Both the position numbers and the translations under genes were made by a program. A stretch of DNA of 64,000 nucleotides from Akkermansiaceae bacterium. Lineage in GTDB: Bacteria > Verrucomicrobiota > Verrucomicrobiia > Verrucomicrobiales > Akkermansiaceae. The notes beneath the pieces were generated by a model. That model was not told the DNA's origin and did not search any database. It was given only the letters and a program-made list of their open reading frames with translations. Shown in pieces: positions 49,437 through 56,923 of the stretch (its first letter is position 1; each line of letters opens with the position of its first letter). The stretch spans positions 40,221 to 104,220 of the forward strand of contig SUVK01000001.1 in the NCBI GenBank assembly GCA_015062055.1, in the 5' to 3' direction.

Positions 49437-51002
49437 TCAGAGCGGCATGTTGCCGTGTTTCTTGGCCGGGCGTGTCTCCTTCTTGTTAAGGAGGGTACGC
49501 AGGGTGAGCGCAATCTTGGCGCGGGTTTCCTTGGGGTTAATTACCTCGGTCACCTGGTCGGAGGCTGCGGCGGCATACGGGTTGTAGAAGGCCTCGGTAT
49601 ACTCGTTGAGTAGCTCTTGACGGCGTGCTTCGCGGGCGGCATCGTCTTCTATTCCCTTGAGCTCGCGGCCATACAGCACCGGCACGGCACCTTGGGCGCC
49701 CATTACGGCAATCTCGGCCGTGGGCCATGCGTATACGGCGTCTGCCCCCAATCCCTTGCAGCACATGGCAATGTAGGCACCGCCGTAGGCTTTGCGCAAT
49801 ATCATGGTTACCTTGGGTACGGTGGCAGAGGAGTAGGCGAAAATCATCTTGGCTCCGTGGCGAATAATGCCACCGCGCTCTTGCTGCTTGCCGGGCAAGA
49901 AGCCGGGTACGTCTACCAAGTTGACCAAGGGAATGTTAAAGGAGTCGCAGCAGCGGATGAAGCGGGCGGCTTTGTCGGAGGCGTCAATATCCAAGCAACC
50001 GGCTTTTACGGCAGGCTGGTTGGCGATGATACCTACTACTACACCGCAAATGCGGCCGAAGCCTACGATGACGTTGCCGGCAAAGTTGGCGTGCACCTCC
50101 ATAAAGCTGCCTTCGTCTACCAAGCGGGCAATCACCTTTTGCATGTCCAGCGGGGTGGTGTTGCTCTCGGGGATGATGTCGTTCATGCCTTCATCATCAG
50201 CAATATCCAGCGGGCAATCAAGCTCGTGGGGCGGGTCTTGCGTGTTGTTGGAGGGCAGGTAGGTGAGCAGCTTCTTGGCGATGTTGATGGCCTCTTCGTC
50301 GCTGTTGGCTACAAAGTGAGCATTGCCCGATACGGAGGCGTGTACATCTGCACCGCCAATCTCTTCCATGGTGCATTTTTCATACGTTACCTGTTCAATC
50401 ACCTTGGGCCCGGTAATGTACATGCCGGCGGCTCCGCCACGACGTATGATGATGAAGTCTGTAAGCGCGGGGGAGTATGCTGCACCACCGGCGCAGGGGC
50501 CGAGGATAAGGGAAATCTGGGGTACCACACCACTGGCTGCCACGTTGTTGTAGAATACGTTAGCAAAACCGGTGAGGGAGTCTACGCCCTCTTGCAGACG
50601 AGCGCCACCCGAGTCGTTAATCTGGATAACGGGCATGCCGCCTTTGATGGCGTACTGCTGGGCATCGCATATCTTTTGGGCGTGCATGTATCCCAAAGAA
50701 CCACCCTGCGCCAAGAAGTCAGCAGATGCTGCCGCTACCGGACGCCCGTTGACCAAACCGAAGCCGGTCACAATGCCATCGCCGGGGATGTCTTTGCTCA
50801 GCATGCCGAAGTTGCTGCAATGGTGCTTGGTGTGCATGCCGATTTCTGTAAAGGACCCATTATCAAACAGACAGGCGATTCGCTCGCGTGCCGTCCAATC
50901 TCCTTTCGCGTGGCGGGCATCATACTTCTCTTGTGTCGCAGCGTACTTAATCTTATGTCTGCGGGCCTCAAGGTCTTCAAGTAATTTGGGATCTATAGCC
51001 AT
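49437..51002 (-). CDS. mmdA: Acyl-CoA carboxyltransferase (methylmalonyl-CoA decarboxylase alpha subunit)
   Basis: DSGGARLQEG, GPCAGGAAYSP, DVPGFLPG, RKAYGGAY, KKHGNMPL. Confidence 0.92.
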   Translation of the reverse strand: MAIDPKLLEDLEARRHKIKYAATQEKYDARHAKGDWTARERIACLFDNGSFTEIGMHTKHHCSNFGMLSKDIPGDGIVTGFGLVNGRPVAAASADFLAQGGSLGYMHAQKICDAQQYAIKGGMPVIQINDSGGARLQEGVDSLTGFANVFYNNVAASGVVPQISLILGPCAGGAAYSPALTDFIIIRRGGAAGMYITGPKVIEQVTYEKCTMEEIGGADVHASVSGNAHFVANSDEEAINIAKKLLTYLPSNNTQDPPHELDCPLDIADDEGMNDIIPESNTTPLDMQKVIARLVDEGSFMEVHANFAGNVIVGFGRICGVVVGIIANQPAVKAGCLDIDASDKAARFIRCCDSFNIPLVNLVDVPGFLPGKQQERGGIIRHGAKMIFAYSSATVPKVTMILRKAYGGAYIAMCCKGLGADAVYAWPTAEIAVMGAQGAVPVLYGRELKGIEDDAAREARRQELLNEYTEAFYNPYAAAASDQVTEVINPKETRAKIALTLRTLLNKKETRPAKKHGNMPL

Positions 51003-51235
51003 ATGTTTTTTATGAGTATGGTGTTCGAGATAAGGTCGCTTGGCGCCTGTATACGGCCCTGCCATTGCGCCCTTTCTACGCTGCACACATTCTACCACAC
51101 TTACCCCGCCCCTGAAAAGAAAATTCCGTGCCTCAGTGCGTTTTTTTTATGCGAAAGCTAGAGAAAACTCTAAGTTTGTGCGAAAATATGACTGCCTCCG
51201 CTAATCCGGGGCGGTAAAATTGTAAGGAAACAGGG

Positions 51236-52120
51236 CTAAACCTGCACGGTGATACGCGGGGTGATGATGGCTCGGCGGTAGGTGCCGGGGGTAACGTGGG
51301 TGCGGGGCCACACGATGCAGTCATCCAGCTCGCAGTCGGCGGGGATGACGGCATCTTGCCCTACCATGCAGTCTTCACCCACTTCTGCAAGGGCAGAGAT
51401 GGTAGCGGAGGGGTGAATGCGTTGGCTGTTGGGCAGCTCGAGGATGGCATCAAGGTAGCCGGCGGGGTTGCCGATTTCATGCCAGTTTGCCCAGTCGAAG
51501 ACAACGCCGCCCGCGCGGCCTTGTTTAATGAGTTCCAACCAGATGGGGAAGATGGAGAACTTGTCTTCTGCGGGGAAAAGGTGGGCTACCTCGGGCTCCA
51601 TGATGTAGGTGCCGGCAAATTGGTGTGTACCGGGGTTGATGCCCAGTGCATGGCGCATATCGGTAATACGGCCGGTTGCTTCGTCGAAGCCGACGTTGCG
51701 CTTGCCGTCTATGCTGCGCAGGGCCATGGTGAGCAAGTTGCCACTGCGGCGGTGTTCTGCCAGCAAATCCCCCAAGGGAATGTCGGTGAGGATGTCGCCG
51801 TTATGCACAATGAGCGGCCCCTCTTTCCACAGCGGGAGAATTTTTTTCACGCCACCGCCGGAGTCCAGCGGTTCATCCTCGTGGCTGAAGGTGACGGGGC
51901 AGCCTCTGTATTGCGGGTCGGGGCAGGGGAATGCTTTGTCCCACGCCATTTCAAGGGTGGAGGTATTGATGATGAACTCCGTTACTCCGGCCTTCATAAA
52001 GTGGTCCATCGTGTGCTGAATGAGCGGCTTTTGAAAGACCGGCATCAGCGGCTTGGGGAGAATGAAGGTGAGGGGCTCGAGTCGTGTGCCTAAACCGGCA
52101 CCTAAAATGAATGCTTGCAT
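51236..52120 (-). CDS. Sugar-phosphate nucleotidyltransferase
   Basis: LGAGLGTRLEPLT..PKPL, DSGGG, HNGDIL, WHEIG. Confidence 0.88.
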   Translation of the reverse strand: MQAFILGAGLGTRLEPLTFILPKPLMPVFQKPLIQHTMDHFMKAGVTEFIINTSTLEMAWDKAFPCPDPQYRGCPVTFSHEDEPLDSGGGVKKILPLWKEGPLIVHNGDILTDIPLGDLLAEHRRSGNLLTMALRSIDGKRNVGFDEATGRITDMRHALGINPGTHQFAGTYIMEPEVAHLFPAEDKFSIFPIWLELIKQGRAGGVVFDWANWHEIGNPAGYLDAILELPNSQRIHPSATISALAEVGEDCMVGQDAVIPADCELDDCIVWPRTHVTPGTYRRAIITPRITVQV

Positions 52121-52127
52121 GGTGAGA

Positions 52128-52853
52128 TTACCAGAGATGTGGCAGGTTGAAACTGATGGCGCATATGCCCATAACGGCGTTGGCTACCCCGTGCATGACG
52201 ATGGCGGGTGTTATGCGCTTGGTTTTGATGACTAACAGGTAAGTGAGAGAGCCGTAAATAAAGGCGCCGCCCCAATCTGCCGGGTTGTGTATCAGCATGA
52301 AAGCTGCCGTTGTAACCCCGTAGGCCGGCCAACTGTGTGTGCCGATGGCTACATGCTGCGGAAAATCCCGGTCAATGCACCAGCGCATCAAAAAGCCTCT
52401 CCAAAACAGCTCTTCGGCAAAGGCGACGATGACGGCCGCGCGTACAAAACGCATGGCGTACTCTGCCAAGGTGAGTGCGCTGCCTTCGCCGAATACCTTT
52501 TCGGGCATGAACCCATTGCCCGTATCGGGTATCCACCCCGCAAAGTAGGGTATCATCCACAGCCCTATGCCAACCAGCCCGAACGGGATGGCCAACAGGC
52601 AGGGGCGCCATGCCCAATCCCACTGCATTTCTTTGCGCACATGCCACAGCCATAAGCCGCAAACGATTGTTTGTAAAGGATAGAGCAGCATCTCGGGGGC
52701 ACGTTGCCACCACGCTGCATCGGGGTGGTCCCATTTTATCGCCTCCCCGCCGAATGCCAGCACGAGCGTAAAGCCCATGAATATGGCTAAAGGGTAGACG
52801 CAGGTGCGGTATAAAGCTCTGTCTGTTATTATTTGTGATTTACAATTTACCAT
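52128..52853 (-). CDS. CAAX/CPBP intramembrane protease (exosortase-associated type)
   Basis: EELFWRGFL, H, HGVAN; multi-TM; only upstream start is the ATG in the inverted-repeat arm. Confidence 0.85.
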   Translation of the reverse strand: MVNCKSQIITDRALYRTCVYPLAIFMGFTLVLAFGGEAIKWDHPDAAWWQRAPEMLLYPLQTIVCGLWLWHVRKEMQWDWAWRPCLLAIPFGLVGIGLWMIPYFAGWIPDTGNGFMPEKVFGEGSALTLAEYAMRFVRAAVIVAFAEELFWRGFLMRWCIDRDFPQHVAIGTHSWPAYGVTTAAFMLIHNPADWGGAFIYGSLTYLLVIKTKRITPAIVMHGVANAVMGICAISFNLPHLW

Positions 52854-52867
52854 TTACAATTTACAAA
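52837..52867. repeat. Inverted repeat arm (31 bp, heptamers TTTAC(A/C)A)
   Basis: gatttacaatttaccatttacaatttacaaa; exact reverse complement of 53297-53327. Confidence 0.97.
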
Positions 52868-52896
52868 TGAGCAAAGCTCCAAGAAGGGCTTTTTTG

Positions 52897-53271
52897 TTAG
52901 CTATGAGTTTTTTGTTGCATGTGCAATTTTTTCGTTTTGATAGAAGCTGTCAAAATGGCGGTAATTTGAGATGCTTCGTCACGTAAATCTTGCAGCAACT
53001 CCGGTCTCATAGTTCCGGATTCTATCAACATATCCAGCCAAAAGCCTGTTTCATCTGCTTCTTCTTCGCAAATTTTCAGCTTGTTTAAAAAGTCTTTATC
53101 ACTCTTAGCAATGCAAGTTGCACGGTAGTTAGCACCGACTGCTGTTCCGGAACGTAATATTTGGTCTGCTAAGATTCGGGCTACACCCGGCTGTTTAAGC
53201 ATTTGTGCAGCAAGATTAATAATTCGCAAGGAAAATTGTTTGGTGCGAATAAGTAAATCTTGCTTGTTCAT
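52897..53271 (-). CDS. Four-helix-bundle protein (IVS-protein/TIGR02436-like)
   Basis: LLIRTKQFSLRII...DQILRSGTAVGANYRA...SDKDFLNKLKICEEEADETGFWL; AT-rich. Confidence 0.92.
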   Translation of the reverse strand: MNKQDLLIRTKQFSLRIINLAAQMLKQPGVARILADQILRSGTAVGANYRATCIAKSDKDFLNKLKICEEEADETGFWLDMLIESGTMRPELLQDLRDEASQITAILTASIKTKKLHMQQKTHS

Positions 53272-53296
53272 GATGCTGTTCAGTTGAATAAGAGAC

Positions 53297-53327
53297 TTTG
53301 TAAATTGTAAATGGTAAATTGTAAATC
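53297..53327. repeat. Inverted repeat arm (31 bp)
   Basis: tttgtaaattgtaaatggtaaattgtaaatc. Confidence 0.97.
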
Positions 53328-53345
53328 GCTTTTGCGAGTCGCTCT

Positions 53346-54512
53346 TCAGAGCGACTCGCAGAAGCGTTCCATTTTGTCGCAAGCCTCGACAAGCAGCGTC
53401 ATGGAGGTAGCGTAGCAGCAACGCAGGTAGCCCTCGCCACAGGCACCGAAGGCGGTGCCGGGCACCGCTGCTACCTTGGCGCCTGTCAGCAGGCGCATGG
53501 CAAACTCTTTGGAGCTGAGCCCAAAGCGCTTGATGCTGGGGAAAGTGTAGAATGCACCGCCGGGCAGGTGGCAATCCATACCCATGTCGTTGAAACGGCC
53601 CACAATGTAGTCGCGGCGGCGGTGGTAGCTGTCGCGCATCTCCAGCATGGCGGGTATGCCGTTTTGCAGGGCTTCTATGCCTGCCTCTTGGCTGGTGATG
53701 GTGGGGCAAATCATGGTGTAGGAGTGTATCTTCATCATCTGGTCGATGAGCTCCTTGGGGCCACAGGCATAGCCCAGTCGGAAACCTGTCATGGCGAAGG
53801 CTTTGGAGAAGCCGTGCAGCAGCAGGGTGCGCTCTTTCATGCCGGGCAGGGAGGCTATGCTGGTGTGTTCTTCCCCATCGTAGCGCAGTTCAGAATAAAT
53901 CTCGTCTGTTAAGACGAAAAGATCGTGCTCGATACATATTTTGGCAATCGCCTCGAGGGTTTCTTTGGGGGCGATGGAGCCGGTGGGGTTGGTGGGGAAG
54001 TTGAGCATCAGTACCTTGGTGCGCGGTGTGATGGCAGCCTCTAACTTGGCGGGGTTGAGGGCAAAGAGGTCGTCTATGCTTGTTTCTACCACCTTGGGGG
54101 TGCCATAGCTCAGCTGTACGGAGGGGGCATAGCTTACGTATGCGGGCTCGTGGTACAATACCTCATCCCCGGGGTTGACCAAACAACGCAGCGCTAAGTC
54201 AATCGCCTCGCTGACGCCCACAGTGGGTAATATCTCGTTGTGCGGGTTGTATGATACCTTGAAAAAGTCCTCAACATAGGTTGCAATGGCGCGACGCAGG
54301 CTCTCGAGCCCATAGTTACTGGTGTAGGTGGTGCGACCTTTTTCTAAGGAGGTGATGGCTGCCTCGCGAATGTTCCATGGGGTGACGAAGTCGGGCTCGC
54401 CTACGCCGAGCGAGATGATGTCTTTACTGCCGGTGACAAGGTCAAAAAACTCGCGGATGCCCGATTTAGGTAGCTCTACGACTTGCTTGGATAAAATACG
54501 ATCCCAATTCAT
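53346..54512 (-). CDS. PLP aminotransferase class I/II
   Basis: SLGVGEPDF, NFPTNPTG, DEIY, GFSKAFAMTGFRLG, GEGYLR. Confidence 0.93.
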   Translation of the reverse strand: MNWDRILSKQVVELPKSGIREFFDLVTGSKDIISLGVGEPDFVTPWNIREAAITSLEKGRTTYTSNYGLESLRRAIATYVEDFFKVSYNPHNEILPTVGVSEAIDLALRCLVNPGDEVLYHEPAYVSYAPSVQLSYGTPKVVETSIDDLFALNPAKLEAAITPRTKVLMLNFPTNPTGSIAPKETLEAIAKICIEHDLFVLTDEIYSELRYDGEEHTSIASLPGMKERTLLLHGFSKAFAMTGFRLGYACGPKELIDQMMKIHSYTMICPTITSQEAGIEALQNGIPAMLEMRDSYHRRRDYIVGRFNDMGMDCHLPGGAFYTFPSIKRFGLSSKEFAMRLLTGAKVAAVPGTAFGACGEGYLRCCYATSMTLLVEACDKMERFCESL

Positions 54513-54520
54513 AGTGCTGG

Positions 54521-54997
54521 TCAGGGGGCTACGCTGATACGGTCGCTCTCAGGTTCTTCATGGAACTTGAGGCCGTTGAGCTTGTATGTTTTCAACAGAA
54601 AGTGAGTGGCGGTAGAAAGAATGCCGTGCAGGTTCGAGAGTTTCTCGCTCACAAAACGTGCAACACCTTGCAGGTTTTCGGCCTCTACCAGTACCAGCAA
54701 ATCAAAGCCACCACTCATCAAATAGCAGCTTTTTACCTCCTCAAAACGGGCAATGCGTTGGGCCAAACGGTCGAAACCTTCACCTCGCTCGGGGGTGCAG
54801 CGTACTTCGATGAATGCCGAGACGCCTTGCTCATCGTGGTTAACAATGGTTTGGTAGCCAACGATTTTGCCCTCCTGCTCGAGGGTAGCTCGCTCTGCGG
54901 CAACTTCAGATACACTCACGCCGAGGCGATCTGCAATCTGCCGGTCGCTCAGGCGTGCGTCCGTCTCCAGTAATTTAAGAAGGGCTTCCTGTGTCAT
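54521..54997 (-). CDS. Lrp/AsnC-family transcriptional regulator
   Basis: LETDARLSDRQIADRLG; CYLMSGGFDL. Confidence 0.93.
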   Translation of the reverse strand: MTQEALLKLLETDARLSDRQIADRLGVSVSEVAAERATLEQEGKIVGYQTIVNHDEQGVSAFIEVRCTPERGEGFDRLAQRIARFEEVKSCYLMSGGFDLLVLVEAENLQGVARFVSEKLSNLHGILSTATHFLLKTYKLNGLKFHEEPESDRISVAP

Positions 54998-55124
54998 AAG
55001 TACACAAATACTACCAGTTCGCGGCGTTAAGTCAAGCTTTAATCAGGTAATCTTTGCACGTATGGTACGCAAAATCGTATTGACTTGGTGCCTGTTTAAT
55101 TTATACTGTACCAAAACGAAAGCC

Positions 55125-56309
55125 GTGATTAGTTGGGAGTTTGCATTGGCCTTGATAATGGCAGCTTTTATTTTGCCATGTATTGTTCTGTATTTTCGTA
55201 TGGAAACACAGCAGCAACGGCGGCGTCATGACATAACGGAAAAAGAGTGCCTGCGCCGTATGCTGCGAGAGACAGAGACGCATGTTCGCAACGATAAATC
55301 TCTGTTTTTGGAGGCGTTGGGGGTGCCTTTTTTGTTGATGCGCGCCTCGGGGCGCGTGGTGATGGGTAATCAACCTGCCGGCGAGCTTTTGGGGATGGAT
55401 GTTGCTTGCTGCCCCAATTTGCTGAAATTGCTTCCGCCCTGCGAGTTGAAAACCGTAATTGCGGAGCTGCTGGCAGCCCAACGGCAAGAGACCCGTACGC
55501 TTTCGCTTACCGTGCAGGGGGAGCCGCGCCACTACGTACTCACTGCCACTCCTTTACACAATGCAGATCACCATATCGGTGTTGTCTTTCACGATGTGAC
55601 CGAGGAGTACAGGACGCAGGTGATACGCCGGGATTTTGTCGCCAATGCTTCTCACGAGCTGAGAACTCCCCTTACGATTTTGCGCGGTTATCTCGAAACA
55701 TTGCTGGAAAACCCACAAGATTCTCAAGATGAGGTGTACCGTACTCGGGCCCTGCAGGTGATGCGTAAGCATACGGAGCGTATTACCCATTTGGTGGAGG
55801 GGATGCTGACGGTGTCTCGCCTGGAGGGGGGCGGCTCCCCTCAGCTGAGGTGTGAGCAGTTCGATTTCTCGGAGCTTGTGGCAGATGTTGCGCTGCAATT
55901 AGAAAGCCTGATGCAGCAAGGTAAGGTGGACTTTGCTGTACGCCTGCATTGTACGCCGTTTATGGTGAACGGTGATAAATTTTATTGGTCGCAAATCATC
56001 TTTAATTTGTTGGAGAACTCATTGAAAAACAATATGTCGCCCGGGTTGCAATTGGAGGTCGGTTCTGTTGCAGAGCCCGATGGCGGCGTGCGTATTTATG
56101 TGCAGGATAATGGTGTAGGTATTGATGCGGCGCATTTGCCCTACATTTTTAAGCGTTTTTACCGTGCGGATGCAACCGGTAAGGTGAAGGGTACCGGCTT
56201 GGGGTTATCCATTGTGCGCCATGCTGTAGAAGCGCATGGCGGTAGTATTACGGCGAGCAGCACCCCCGGTGTTTCTACTACCTTTACAATATGTTTGCCC
56301 CGGCAATGA
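55125..56309 (+). CDS. PhoR-like sensor histidine kinase
   Basis: FVANASHELRTPL, NLLENSLK, DNGVGI, FKRFYR, GTGLGLSIV; start uncertain (55062 or 55125). Confidence 0.9.
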   Translation: MISWEFALALIMAAFILPCIVLYFRMETQQQRRRHDITEKECLRRMLRETETHVRNDKSLFLEALGVPFLLMRASGRVVMGNQPAGELLGMDVACCPNLLKLLPPCELKTVIAELLAAQRQETRTLSLTVQGEPRHYVLTATPLHNADHHIGVVFHDVTEEYRTQVIRRDFVANASHELRTPLTILRGYLETLLENPQDSQDEVYRTRALQVMRKHTERITHLVEGMLTVSRLEGGGSPQLRCEQFDFSELVADVALQLESLMQQGKVDFAVRLHCTPFMVNGDKFYWSQIIFNLLENSLKNNMSPGLQLEVGSVAEPDGGVRIYVQDNGVGIDAAHLPYIFKRFYRADATGKVKGTGLGLSIVRHAVEAHGGSITASSTPGVSTTFTICLPRQ

Positions 56310-56518
56310 TTGTGAGGGCGCATGTACATAATTGAAACCCGTGTTTTTATTTTGGCCGGTGAGCCCTTTTGTATTTATGCTTCTTTGGCCTCCCCTTTTT
56401 TTGATTGATTTTCATAACTGTGAGTGTGAATAAATTATCTCATTTTCTGCCGCTGTATGTTTTTAAGCTTGCAAGTATGCCCCGAAACATGTATATAAAT
56501 AGTACAGATATTCATGTT

Positions 56519-56923
56519 ATGAAAGACAGATCATCGTATTCAGCAGAAGAAAAGTTGGACATTGTCAAATTGGTGCTTTCCCGTAAGCGTTCCATTCAAG
56601 ATGTAGCCAAAGAGAAGGGCATTGCGGCAACATTGATTTCGCTTTGGAAAAAGCAAGCAGAAGATGCTATGGCCGCCCGTTTTCAACCCCAGCCCAAGGG
56701 GCGCCGTAAGGTGGAGAAAACCGAGGAATGTGCTGCTGCTGAAACCAAATCTCTTAAAAATGATGCTCGTAAAGCTAAGATTAAGGCCTCGCATCTGGAG
56801 TCCTCTCTCAAAGAGTCCAAAAAGAGAGTGGCTCTTCTCGAACAACAGCTCGGTGAGCTTTGCGCCGTGCTCGGCTACAAACTCGTCAAGGCTCGCAAAC
56901 CCCGCAAAAGTCGCAAGGCTTAA
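56519..56923 (+). CDS. IS3 OrfA-like HTH protein without OrfB
   Basis: YSAEEKLDIV...SIQDVAKEKGIAATLISLWKKQ, coiled coil, Lys/Arg tail. Confidence 0.75.
   Translation: MKDRSSYSAEEKLDIVKLVLSRKRSIQDVAKEKGIAATLISLWKKQAEDAMAARFQPQPKGRRKVEKTEECAAAETKSLKNDARKAKIKASHLESSLKESKKRVALLEQQLGELCAVLGYKLVKARKPRKSRKA

Follow-up and report, generated by a model that had tools for sequence, protein, structure and literature searches.

A gene for a four-helix-bundle (4HB) protein, framed by two perfectly complementary arrays of tandem heptamers, forms a cassette inside an operon in the 64,000-nt stretch of DNA analyzed here (Akkermansiaceae bacterium, GenBank assembly GCA_015062055.1, contig SUVK01000001.1, positions 40,221 to 104,220; called the window below). 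Comparison across the genus shows that such cassettes are discrete units, each consisting of a gene plus its arms, that have been gained, lost, replaced, relocated, and inverted. We read the focal region as a heptamer-armed 4HB cassette that is built like an intervening sequence (IVS) of 23S rRNA but sits between the cistrons of an mRNA operon, and we put the probability of this reading as a whole at roughly 0.6. The genome that contains the window is referred to as G000 (2.42 Mb in 87 contigs, with about 4% of the genome missing from the assembly). Other G numbers denote congener genomes, C numbers denote contigs, and L numbers denote the loci that we fetched from these genomes.

Anatomy of the focal cassette

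The features of the locus are listed below in sense-strand order, with coordinates in the window.

54521-54997, minus strand: Lrp/AsnC regulator gene, a member of the operon
53346-54512, minus strand: class I/II aminotransferase gene, the upstream host gene
53327-53366, minus strand: stop-codon hairpin, made of the last aminotransferase codons, the stop codon, and their reverse complement (core stem, 12 bp)
53297-53327, minus strand: upstream (5') arm, sense strand GATTTACAATTTACCATTTACAATTTACAAA, four TTTAC(A/C)A units
53272-53296, minus strand: 25-nt leader from the upstream arm to the start codon
52897-53271, minus strand: 4HB gene encoding 124 amino acids (aa), PF05635/TIGR02436
52868-52896, minus strand: 29-nt trailer from the stop codon to the downstream arm, with a small 7-bp hairpin at 52873-52892
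52837-52867, minus strand: downstream (3') arm, sense strand TTTGTAAATTGTAAATGGTAAATTGTAAATC, with TAA in all three frames and an ATG at 52851-52853
52128-52853, minus strand: gene for an Rce1-like CAAX/PEP-CTERM-associated protease (TIGR03008), the downstream host gene, given as its longest open reading frame (ORF)
51236-52120, minus strand: nucleotidyltransferase gene, a member of the operon

The other junctions of the operon are 7 to 8 nt long, and the gap between the aminotransferase and protease genes, which holds the cassette, is 492 nt. Each arm has 31 nt, the two are complementary at 31 of 31 positions, and 429 nt lie between them. The 12-mer TTTACAATTTAC, a dimer of the heptamer, has seven matches with at most one mismatch in the window, six of which are within the arms; shuffled windows gave a mean of 0.32 matches, and no shuffle reached seven. 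Within 1.2 kb of the gene, the only repeats are the arms and the stop-codon hairpin. The cassette has a GC content of 37.5%, compared to 55 to 59% in the flanking genes. An initial annotation of this DNA, made from the sequence alone, had described an exact 31-nt TTTAC(A/C)A inverted repeat around a 124-aa ORF, in an AT-rich cassette that interrupts an Lrp-aminotransferase-CAAX-nucleotidyltransferase operon and encodes no transposase or recombinase. All of its coordinates proved correct, its G+C counts are exact (23/60 at 52921-52980 and 40/60 at 53401-53460), and profile matches of the ORFs revealed no transposase or recombinase inside the cassette and no recombinase in the operon.

The 124-aa protein matches PF05635 with 53.8 bits (cutoff, 33.8) and TIGR02436 with 78.8 bits (cutoff, 24), the family that was originally discovered within 23S rRNA IVSs. 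The solved structure nearest to it is PDB 2RLD (E = 4e-18), which was deposited with five chains, and another member of the family, Xcc0516, is cited in PMC10053308 as a pentamer built from four-helix bundles. Over 113 same-site pairs of genus orthologues, the median ratio of nonsynonymous to synonymous substitution rates (dN/dS) is 0.075, which indicates that the 4HB protein is functional and under strong purifying selection. The GC content of the ORF is below that of the flanks in 116 of 117 cassettes. A role in antiphage defense or membership in a phage family was considered and rejected, as the 4HB protein has no PADLOC or PHROGs match.

Directly before the upstream arm, a hairpin of 12 to 19 bp covers the aminotransferase stop codon. 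Among the focal-junction sequences of congeners, this hairpin is found in seven of eight filled sites and in none of 11 empty sites. Between G000 and G002, its coding half carries two synonymous changes, each of which is compensated in the noncoding half. The aminotransferase C termini are also one to three residues shorter in filled species than in empty ones. We rejected the host hairpin as an insertion target, as the sequences just outside the arms show no complementarity; the hairpin lies wholly upstream of the cassette, and the cassette therefore does not sit in its loop.

At the other end, the downstream protease gene seems to take its start codon from the arm. The protease N terminus in relatives reads MQTD..LYRTCVYP, and the corresponding ATG is gone in G000. 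The only in-frame ATG upstream of the conserved N-terminal motif is the one at 52851-52853, in the center of the downstream arm, where it arises from a single variant unit (TGGTAAA). Because the ATG of the relatives is lost and the sole upstream in-frame ATG is inside the arm, the protease gene appears to depend on cassette sequence, which would amount to domestication of the cassette. Public gene calls bypass the arm ATG and give a 216-aa protease that starts from an internal Met.

Gain, loss, and relocation of cassettes across the genus

The 4HB family is unevenly distributed among 61 genomes of the genus: 43 of them carry 1 to 16 copies, and 18 have no member at all. We fetched about 120 loci and scored 118 distinct 4HB genes for inverted arms, using as a control the alignment score of the sequences flanking random 375-nt positions in G000. 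Inverted arms with a score of at least 34 were present around 95 of the 118 genes but at none of 400 random positions (maximum score, 28). Altogether, the genus has more than 100 cassettes, spread over 43 site groups. G000 itself contains five 4HB loci, including a copy on C22 with imperfect inverted arms of about 105 nt and a copy on C55 with inverted arms of about 125 nt. Neither set of arms is related in sequence to the focal arms. The question raised by the initial annotation, whether other 4HB genes have inverted repeats of their own, is thus answered in the affirmative for most genes in the genus and for at least two of the four other copies in G000. Two of the five loci in G000 have an internal stop codon (TGA and TAA; G000:C55:34229-34896 and C62:36576-36809). 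Though interrupted, the C55 copy keeps its 125-nt arms, which are made of TTTTTCACC units between mini-hairpins.

The arms come in two styles. In one, heptamers are contiguous (TACAA, TACGA, GCAGAAT, TTGAATG, GATTAGG, and others); in the other, conserved 7- to 9-nt units (GATATCGTC, TTTTCAC, TCTTCAC, and others) lie between GC-rich mini-hairpins, and the arms are 60 to 200 nt long. Of 76 period-7 runs within arms, 56 have four units. Arm length is unstable at the focal junction, where G005 (L017) has 11 ATTACGA units upstream and 4 downstream, and in G020 (L020) the array at this junction changes from ATTACGA to ATTACAA inside one arm. Short-read contigs frequently end at such arms.

Gene and arms are inherited and relocated together, since the repeat class tracks the protein tree and homology stops at the arms. 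The protein tree has 12 changes of repeat-unit class, one more than the 11 that 12 classes need at the least, compared to at least 53 in 200 label shuffles, and members of a single class are found in as many as five site groups. For relocated ORF-bearing cassettes, homology ends within 3 to 7 nt of the arm ends. For instance, L030 (G011) and L045 (G052) are homologous from 1410 to 1898 and from 1414 to 1897, respectively (71% identity), and have 1.4 kb of unrelated DNA on each side. Two more pairs at unrelated sites behave likewise.

The arms themselves show how their complementarity is kept. We aligned the upstream arm of 93 distinct cassettes to the reverse complement of its partner and counted 796 mismatches: 146 of the G:U type (as read in the sense transcript), 186 of the A:C type, and 464 transversions. 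Counted by site, the G:U and A:C types numbered 13 and 18 (P = 0.47). We dropped the idea that the stem is kept by compensatory RNA evolution, as there is no excess of G:U over A:C. In four orthologous sets, on the other hand, 29, 22, 13, and 8 columns have mirrored arm changes (two states, perfectly matched). G053 and G011 have one arm of each of two types, and in G022 both arms are of one type and near perfect over 104 bp. Long-armed cassettes have also undergone clean inversions between collinear flanks, in G068 versus G019 (96.5% identical, with a 100% identical protein) and in G005/G008 versus G020. The missing wobble bias, the mirrored changes, and the inversions together indicate that arm complementarity is held at the DNA level, by arm-to-arm conversion and recombination.

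The turnover of cassettes is best seen at individual junctions. Among 20 congeners, the aminotransferase-protease junction is empty in 11 (spacer of 9 to 76 nt), filled in 8, and followed by another downstream gene in 1. On the aminotransferase tree, this distribution requires at least four state changes. The filled sites fall into two deep lineages, TACAA (G000, G006, and G063; proteins about 63% identical) and TACGA (G002 plus the G022 group; proteins 65 to 71% identical), which are only about 44% identical to each other as proteins. The sister species G000 and G002 have aminotransferases that are 96.6% identical and 4HB proteins that are 44.6% identical, and their heptamers differ. The closest relative with an empty site is G017, whose spacer still contains CTTTACAAAGAC, which may be what is left of an arm since lost. 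The initial annotation had regarded the cassette as a candidate mobile element and had suggested a search for an empty counterpart in relatives. Since empty alleles exist and family members elsewhere carry arms, this idea survives two of the findings that could have sunk it, namely, a site occupied in every relative and family members devoid of inverted repeats.

A similar history is seen at the smpB junction. G064 has a pristine empty site there (TAA, 11 nt, ATG), G005 has a 150-nt remnant of arms without a gene, five genomes have a TTGAATG-type cassette, and others have a AATTTCAC-type cassette. In G053, five tandem ORF-less hairpins are accompanied by an antisense copy of the 4HB gene, and a solo right arm of an older lineage adjoins the start codon. 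It appears that new cassettes insert into existing ones or next to them, and the distance from the upstream stop codon to the cassette is 0 to 8 nt. No target-site duplication was found at the focal or the smpB junction; the focal arms are flanked by AAAAGC on one side and ACAAAT on the other, which share no direct repeat. The ORF-less hairpins of G053 (G053:C63:2300-4000, L168) consist of ATTTCAC units and mini-hairpins, and each ends in a copy of the smpB 3' end (CAGTGGTAA). In G074, G020, G008, and G044, the smpB junction contains an insert of about 10.5 to 11.5 kb, as it also does in G011 (11.5 kb).

Within the species of the focal genome, in contrast to the genus, the cassette is fixed, immobile, and co-oriented with the operon. 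Exact matches of the 4HB protein, and likewise of the aminotransferase, occur in 23 public contigs, always in this arrangement. Four independent assemblies of the species differ by a single synonymous change in 586 nt, and their upstream and downstream arms are identical. The proposal of the initial annotation that the unit spreads thus holds on the evolutionary scale but not in this species, where it occupies one site in 23 of 23 contigs.

Arms are also found in an element without a gene. This ORF-less element of about 280 nt (G000:C19:3928-4205) is flanked by a ribonucleotide-reductase beta-like gene and by the gene that comes after it. Its internal inverted heptamer arrays are identical to the focal arms at 32 of 33 positions, variant unit included. 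Outside these arrays lie 18-nt terminal inverted repeats (GGGCAAACGCATTAGG), and the target is duplicated over 9 to 10 nt (CAGAAATTC(C)). At least four copies of the same type occur in G002; they are 94 to 99% identical and have unrelated flanks, and one has the duplication GGGCGGATGG. The terminal repeat of the C19 element shares GGGCAAACGCATT with the end of a multicopy insertion sequence (IS) that breaks contigs C16, C44, and C72. Each of these contigs (ends at C16:16301, C44:51769, and C72:4985) breaks off 120 to 220 nt inside a common repeat, which begins with CAGGGCAAACGCATTTGAGTTGTGTCATACATCC and is probably the end of that IS. We read the C19 element as a miniature inverted-repeat transposable element (MITE) of IS ends that captured an arms-only hairpin. 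It shows that arms can spread, but via a conventional transposase and not on their own. Elsewhere in the window, a 172-aa ORF with an HTH_Tnp_1 (IS3 orfA-like) domain lies at 56405-56923, just past a divergent histidine-kinase gene. Further assemblies of this species have it in the same position, and nothing visible ties it to the cassette.

Proposed mechanism and alternative explanations

The means of spread of the cassette and the role of its protein are parts of the picture that we infer. The cassette was inserted flush between the aminotransferase stop codon and the start of the CAAX gene. In our model, it would be transcribed together with the operon, because a promoter scan detected no promoter-like site on the sense strand upstream of the 4HB gene or in the upstream arm. 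In the operon transcript, the arms would form a 31-bp duplex that could serve as a substrate of RNase III, as in the IVS of Coxiella. The cut would split the Lrp-aminotransferase message from the CAAX-nucleotidyltransferase message, and the stop-codon hairpin would cap or protect the upstream fragment. The pentamer-forming 4HB protein would bind to the arrays of four heptamers in the cassette that encodes it, in either their DNA or their RNA form, and this interaction, not a transposase, would underlie the persistence and occasional relocation of the unit.

Several observations make these steps plausible. The predicted fold contains the stop-codon hairpin and the 31-bp stem (z = -8.3), and the stem is present in both the minimum-energy and the centroid folds. 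The genome has an RNase III gene (G000:C37:22389-23033). Of the cassettes, 57% are co-oriented between codirectional genes, although this figure is approximate (neighbor orientation was taken from the longest ORF in 420-nt flanks, which is crude in a GC-rich genome). No rRNA match was found in 51000-55500, and known RNA families gave only a chance snoRNA-like match below threshold. By analogy with Coxiella, we consider RNase III processing of the focal stem a tentative proposal with a little less than an even chance, and much the same applies to specific binding of the heptamer arrays by the 4HB protein. That the protein drives the mobility of the unit we consider unlikely.

A number of points weigh against our interpretation. 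RNA pairing, judging from the mismatch counts, is not what maintains the arms; their upkeep at the DNA level is compatible with an RNA role, yet it takes away the chief comparative reason to assume one. The genes of inverted cassettes are still intact, so cotranscription with the operon is not the sole route of expression. [quoted passage not shown] There is no trace of recent movement (the identical protein occurs in the focal context only, in 23 contigs), no target-site duplication, and no enzyme able to move DNA. Lastly, repeat type and protein clade may go together for no other reason than co-inheritance, and the binding of arrays is putative.

The observations could also be extended to a broader interpretation, in which PF05635 pentamers and four-unit heptamer arrays constitute a self-contained, transposase-free system and each protein lineage recognizes its own unit. 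Such a system would settle right after stop codons or in existing hairpins and cassettes (operon junctions in this genus, rRNA helices elsewhere). Its arms would be kept identical by hairpin-templated conversion, and it would flip in place. The IVSs of 23S rRNA and the four-unit heptamer arrays of bacteria would then be its offshoots and remnants. Taken with all of these parts, the broader interpretation is doubtful.

Other explanations do without a mobile unit or assign the movement to another agent. The cassette could be a host regulatory module, with the arms as an RNA-processing or attenuation site that uncouples the operon halves and the protein as a host factor encoded there. In its favor, the cassette is fixed and invariant in the species, and the protein that it encodes is under strong purifying selection; the compensated stop-codon hairpin and the arm-derived start codon indicate integration into host expression, and RNase III is present. 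The junction, however, works without a cassette in 11 congeners, 18 of the 61 genomes lack the family altogether, and the same design recurs at unrelated junctions in 43 site groups. A host module also fits poorly with the low GC content relative to the flanks (116 of 117 cassettes), the stem without wobble bias, and the replacement of one lineage by another at a single site, and we consider it improbable. Alternatively, the cassette may be the passenger of a conventional transposon, a MITE-like element moved in trans by an IS transposase, in which the heptamer arms are mere internal structure. The C19 element combines focal-like arrays with outer terminal repeats and a target duplication, it has at least four near-identical relatives in G002 (one with a duplication), and its terminal repeat shares GGGCAAACGCATT with the multicopy IS end. 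But the focal cassette has neither outer terminal repeats nor a target duplication, and the homology of relocated ORF-bearing cassettes stops 3 to 7 nt from the arm ends, while the 4HB paralogues of one genome differ in their arms, unlike a family served by one transposase. With the C19 MITE better read as an IS-end pair that holds a captured arms-only hairpin, a passenger origin of the focal cassette seems quite improbable.

Recombination between arms raises the further idea of an invertible DNA switch that flips the gene and makes expression of the 4HB gene or of downstream genes phase variable. It would account for the two clean inversions of long-armed cassettes between close species, one of them with a 100% identical protein, and for the antisense copy at the smpB junction of G053. 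These inversions are, however, fixed species differences, as expected from rare homologous recombination between repeats of 100 to 200 bp. The focal arms are only 31 bp long, the orientation is the same in 17 of 17 focal-junction cassettes and in all four assemblies of the species, and the cassettes have no recombinase gene next to them; a switch has very little chance of being correct. Finally, PF05635 is the Pfam family that resembles Avd, and no other family is as common beside reverse transcriptases of diversity-generating retroelements (DGRs) (PMC10053308), which would fit an orphan Avd accessory gene left by a DGR. This explanation is effectively refuted. In the genome, a group II intron maturase (RVT_1 plus GIIM) on contig C68 (G000:C68:19054-20643; L145, 961-2550) is the sole reverse transcriptase that was detected, no template/variable repeat pair was found within 1.2 kb, PADLOC and PHROGs gave no match, and the genome has five copies of the family, with hairpin arms at the focal copy and at least two others.

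Relation to known elements and significance

The closest known counterparts of the cassette are the IVSs of 23S rRNA. The IVS in helix 45 of Coxiella burnetii has a stem of 28 bp, tandem heptamers, and an ORF for S23p, and it is cut mid-stem by RNase III (PMC4990558). The IVSs of Coxiella and Leptospira (PMC4990558) share with the focal cassette the protein family encoded in the loop, a terminal inverted repeat that yields a stem of about 28 to 31 bp, and heptamers of variable number in the stem region. The sizes are also similar (428 nt in Coxiella and 491 nt here), and IVSs are likewise patchy in their presence, have ORF-less forms, and have been proposed to be acquired horizontally. The IVS-like architecture proposed in the initial annotation is therefore well founded. 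The differences are in location, state, and fate. The focal cassette lies between protein-coding cistrons instead of in 23S helix 9, 25, or 45, so it is not an IVS in the strict sense, though built like one. Its ORF is intact and shows the marks of strong purifying selection, whereas that of Coxiella is decaying and seems not to be translated (PMC4990558). Excision by RNase III is known in Coxiella and would be a prediction for the focal cassette. The focal arms, moreover, consist wholly of heptamer arrays, and in those of sister clades mini-hairpins separate the units.

Correia elements (CREE/NEMIS) of Neisseria are noncoding and highly multicopy, with near-identical ends and a TA target duplication. 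They are intergenic, cotranscribed, and present or absent between strains, and in mRNA their repeats form duplexes that RNase III cleaves. Like these elements and other MITEs, the focal cassette is short, bounded by inverted repeats, and located in an intergenic spacer, and Correia elements would be the nearest functional analogue for an mRNA hairpin that is cut by RNase III. Unlike them, it carries a conserved gene, its arms are unique among ORF-bearing copies, and it has no target duplication. Many near-identical copies, another trait of MITEs, were not found among the five 4HB loci of G000, where the focal arms differ from the others.

Tandem heptamers in intergenic regions have been described as GGGNATC in Xanthomonas and Nostoc (PMC4692102) and as TAACTGA in Beggiatoaceae (PMC4679880), and Geobacter metallireducens has four- and five-unit heptamers that include inverted pairs (PMC2700814). 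These arrays resemble the focal arms in their 7-nt period, their preference for four units, and their location between codirectional ORFs near stop and start codons. They are transcribed with their neighbors, which is what we propose for the focal cassette. In contrast to our case, the three reports (PMC4692102, PMC2700814, and PMC4679880) link the arrays to no protein family or enclosed gene. The DGR accessory protein Avd has a homologous pentameric four-helix-bundle fold and binds nucleic acid (PMC10053308), but the focal locus has no DGR reverse transcriptase and no template/variable repeats. Full-text searches of the literature found no paper that links the PF05635 family to inverted heptamer arms outside rRNA.

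Beyond what could be seen in the window, the genus adds multiple filled and empty junctions, the serial occupancy of one site, a negative wobble test, arm conversion, inversions, and a link to MITEs. With empty, filled, arms-only, replaced, and inverted cassettes among close relatives, the genus constitutes a natural experiment, and it ties together three old loose ends: the function of the 4HB family, the origin of rRNA IVSs, and the excess of four-unit heptamer arrays. For genome annotation, the cassettes matter in that they split operons, provide host genes with stop and start codons, and interrupt assemblies made from short reads. If cutting by RNase III is the whole story, IVS-type processing would extend from rRNA to mRNA operons. 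If the 4HB protein binds its own arrays, the cassettes would represent a novel means by which a gene can propagate with no transposase.

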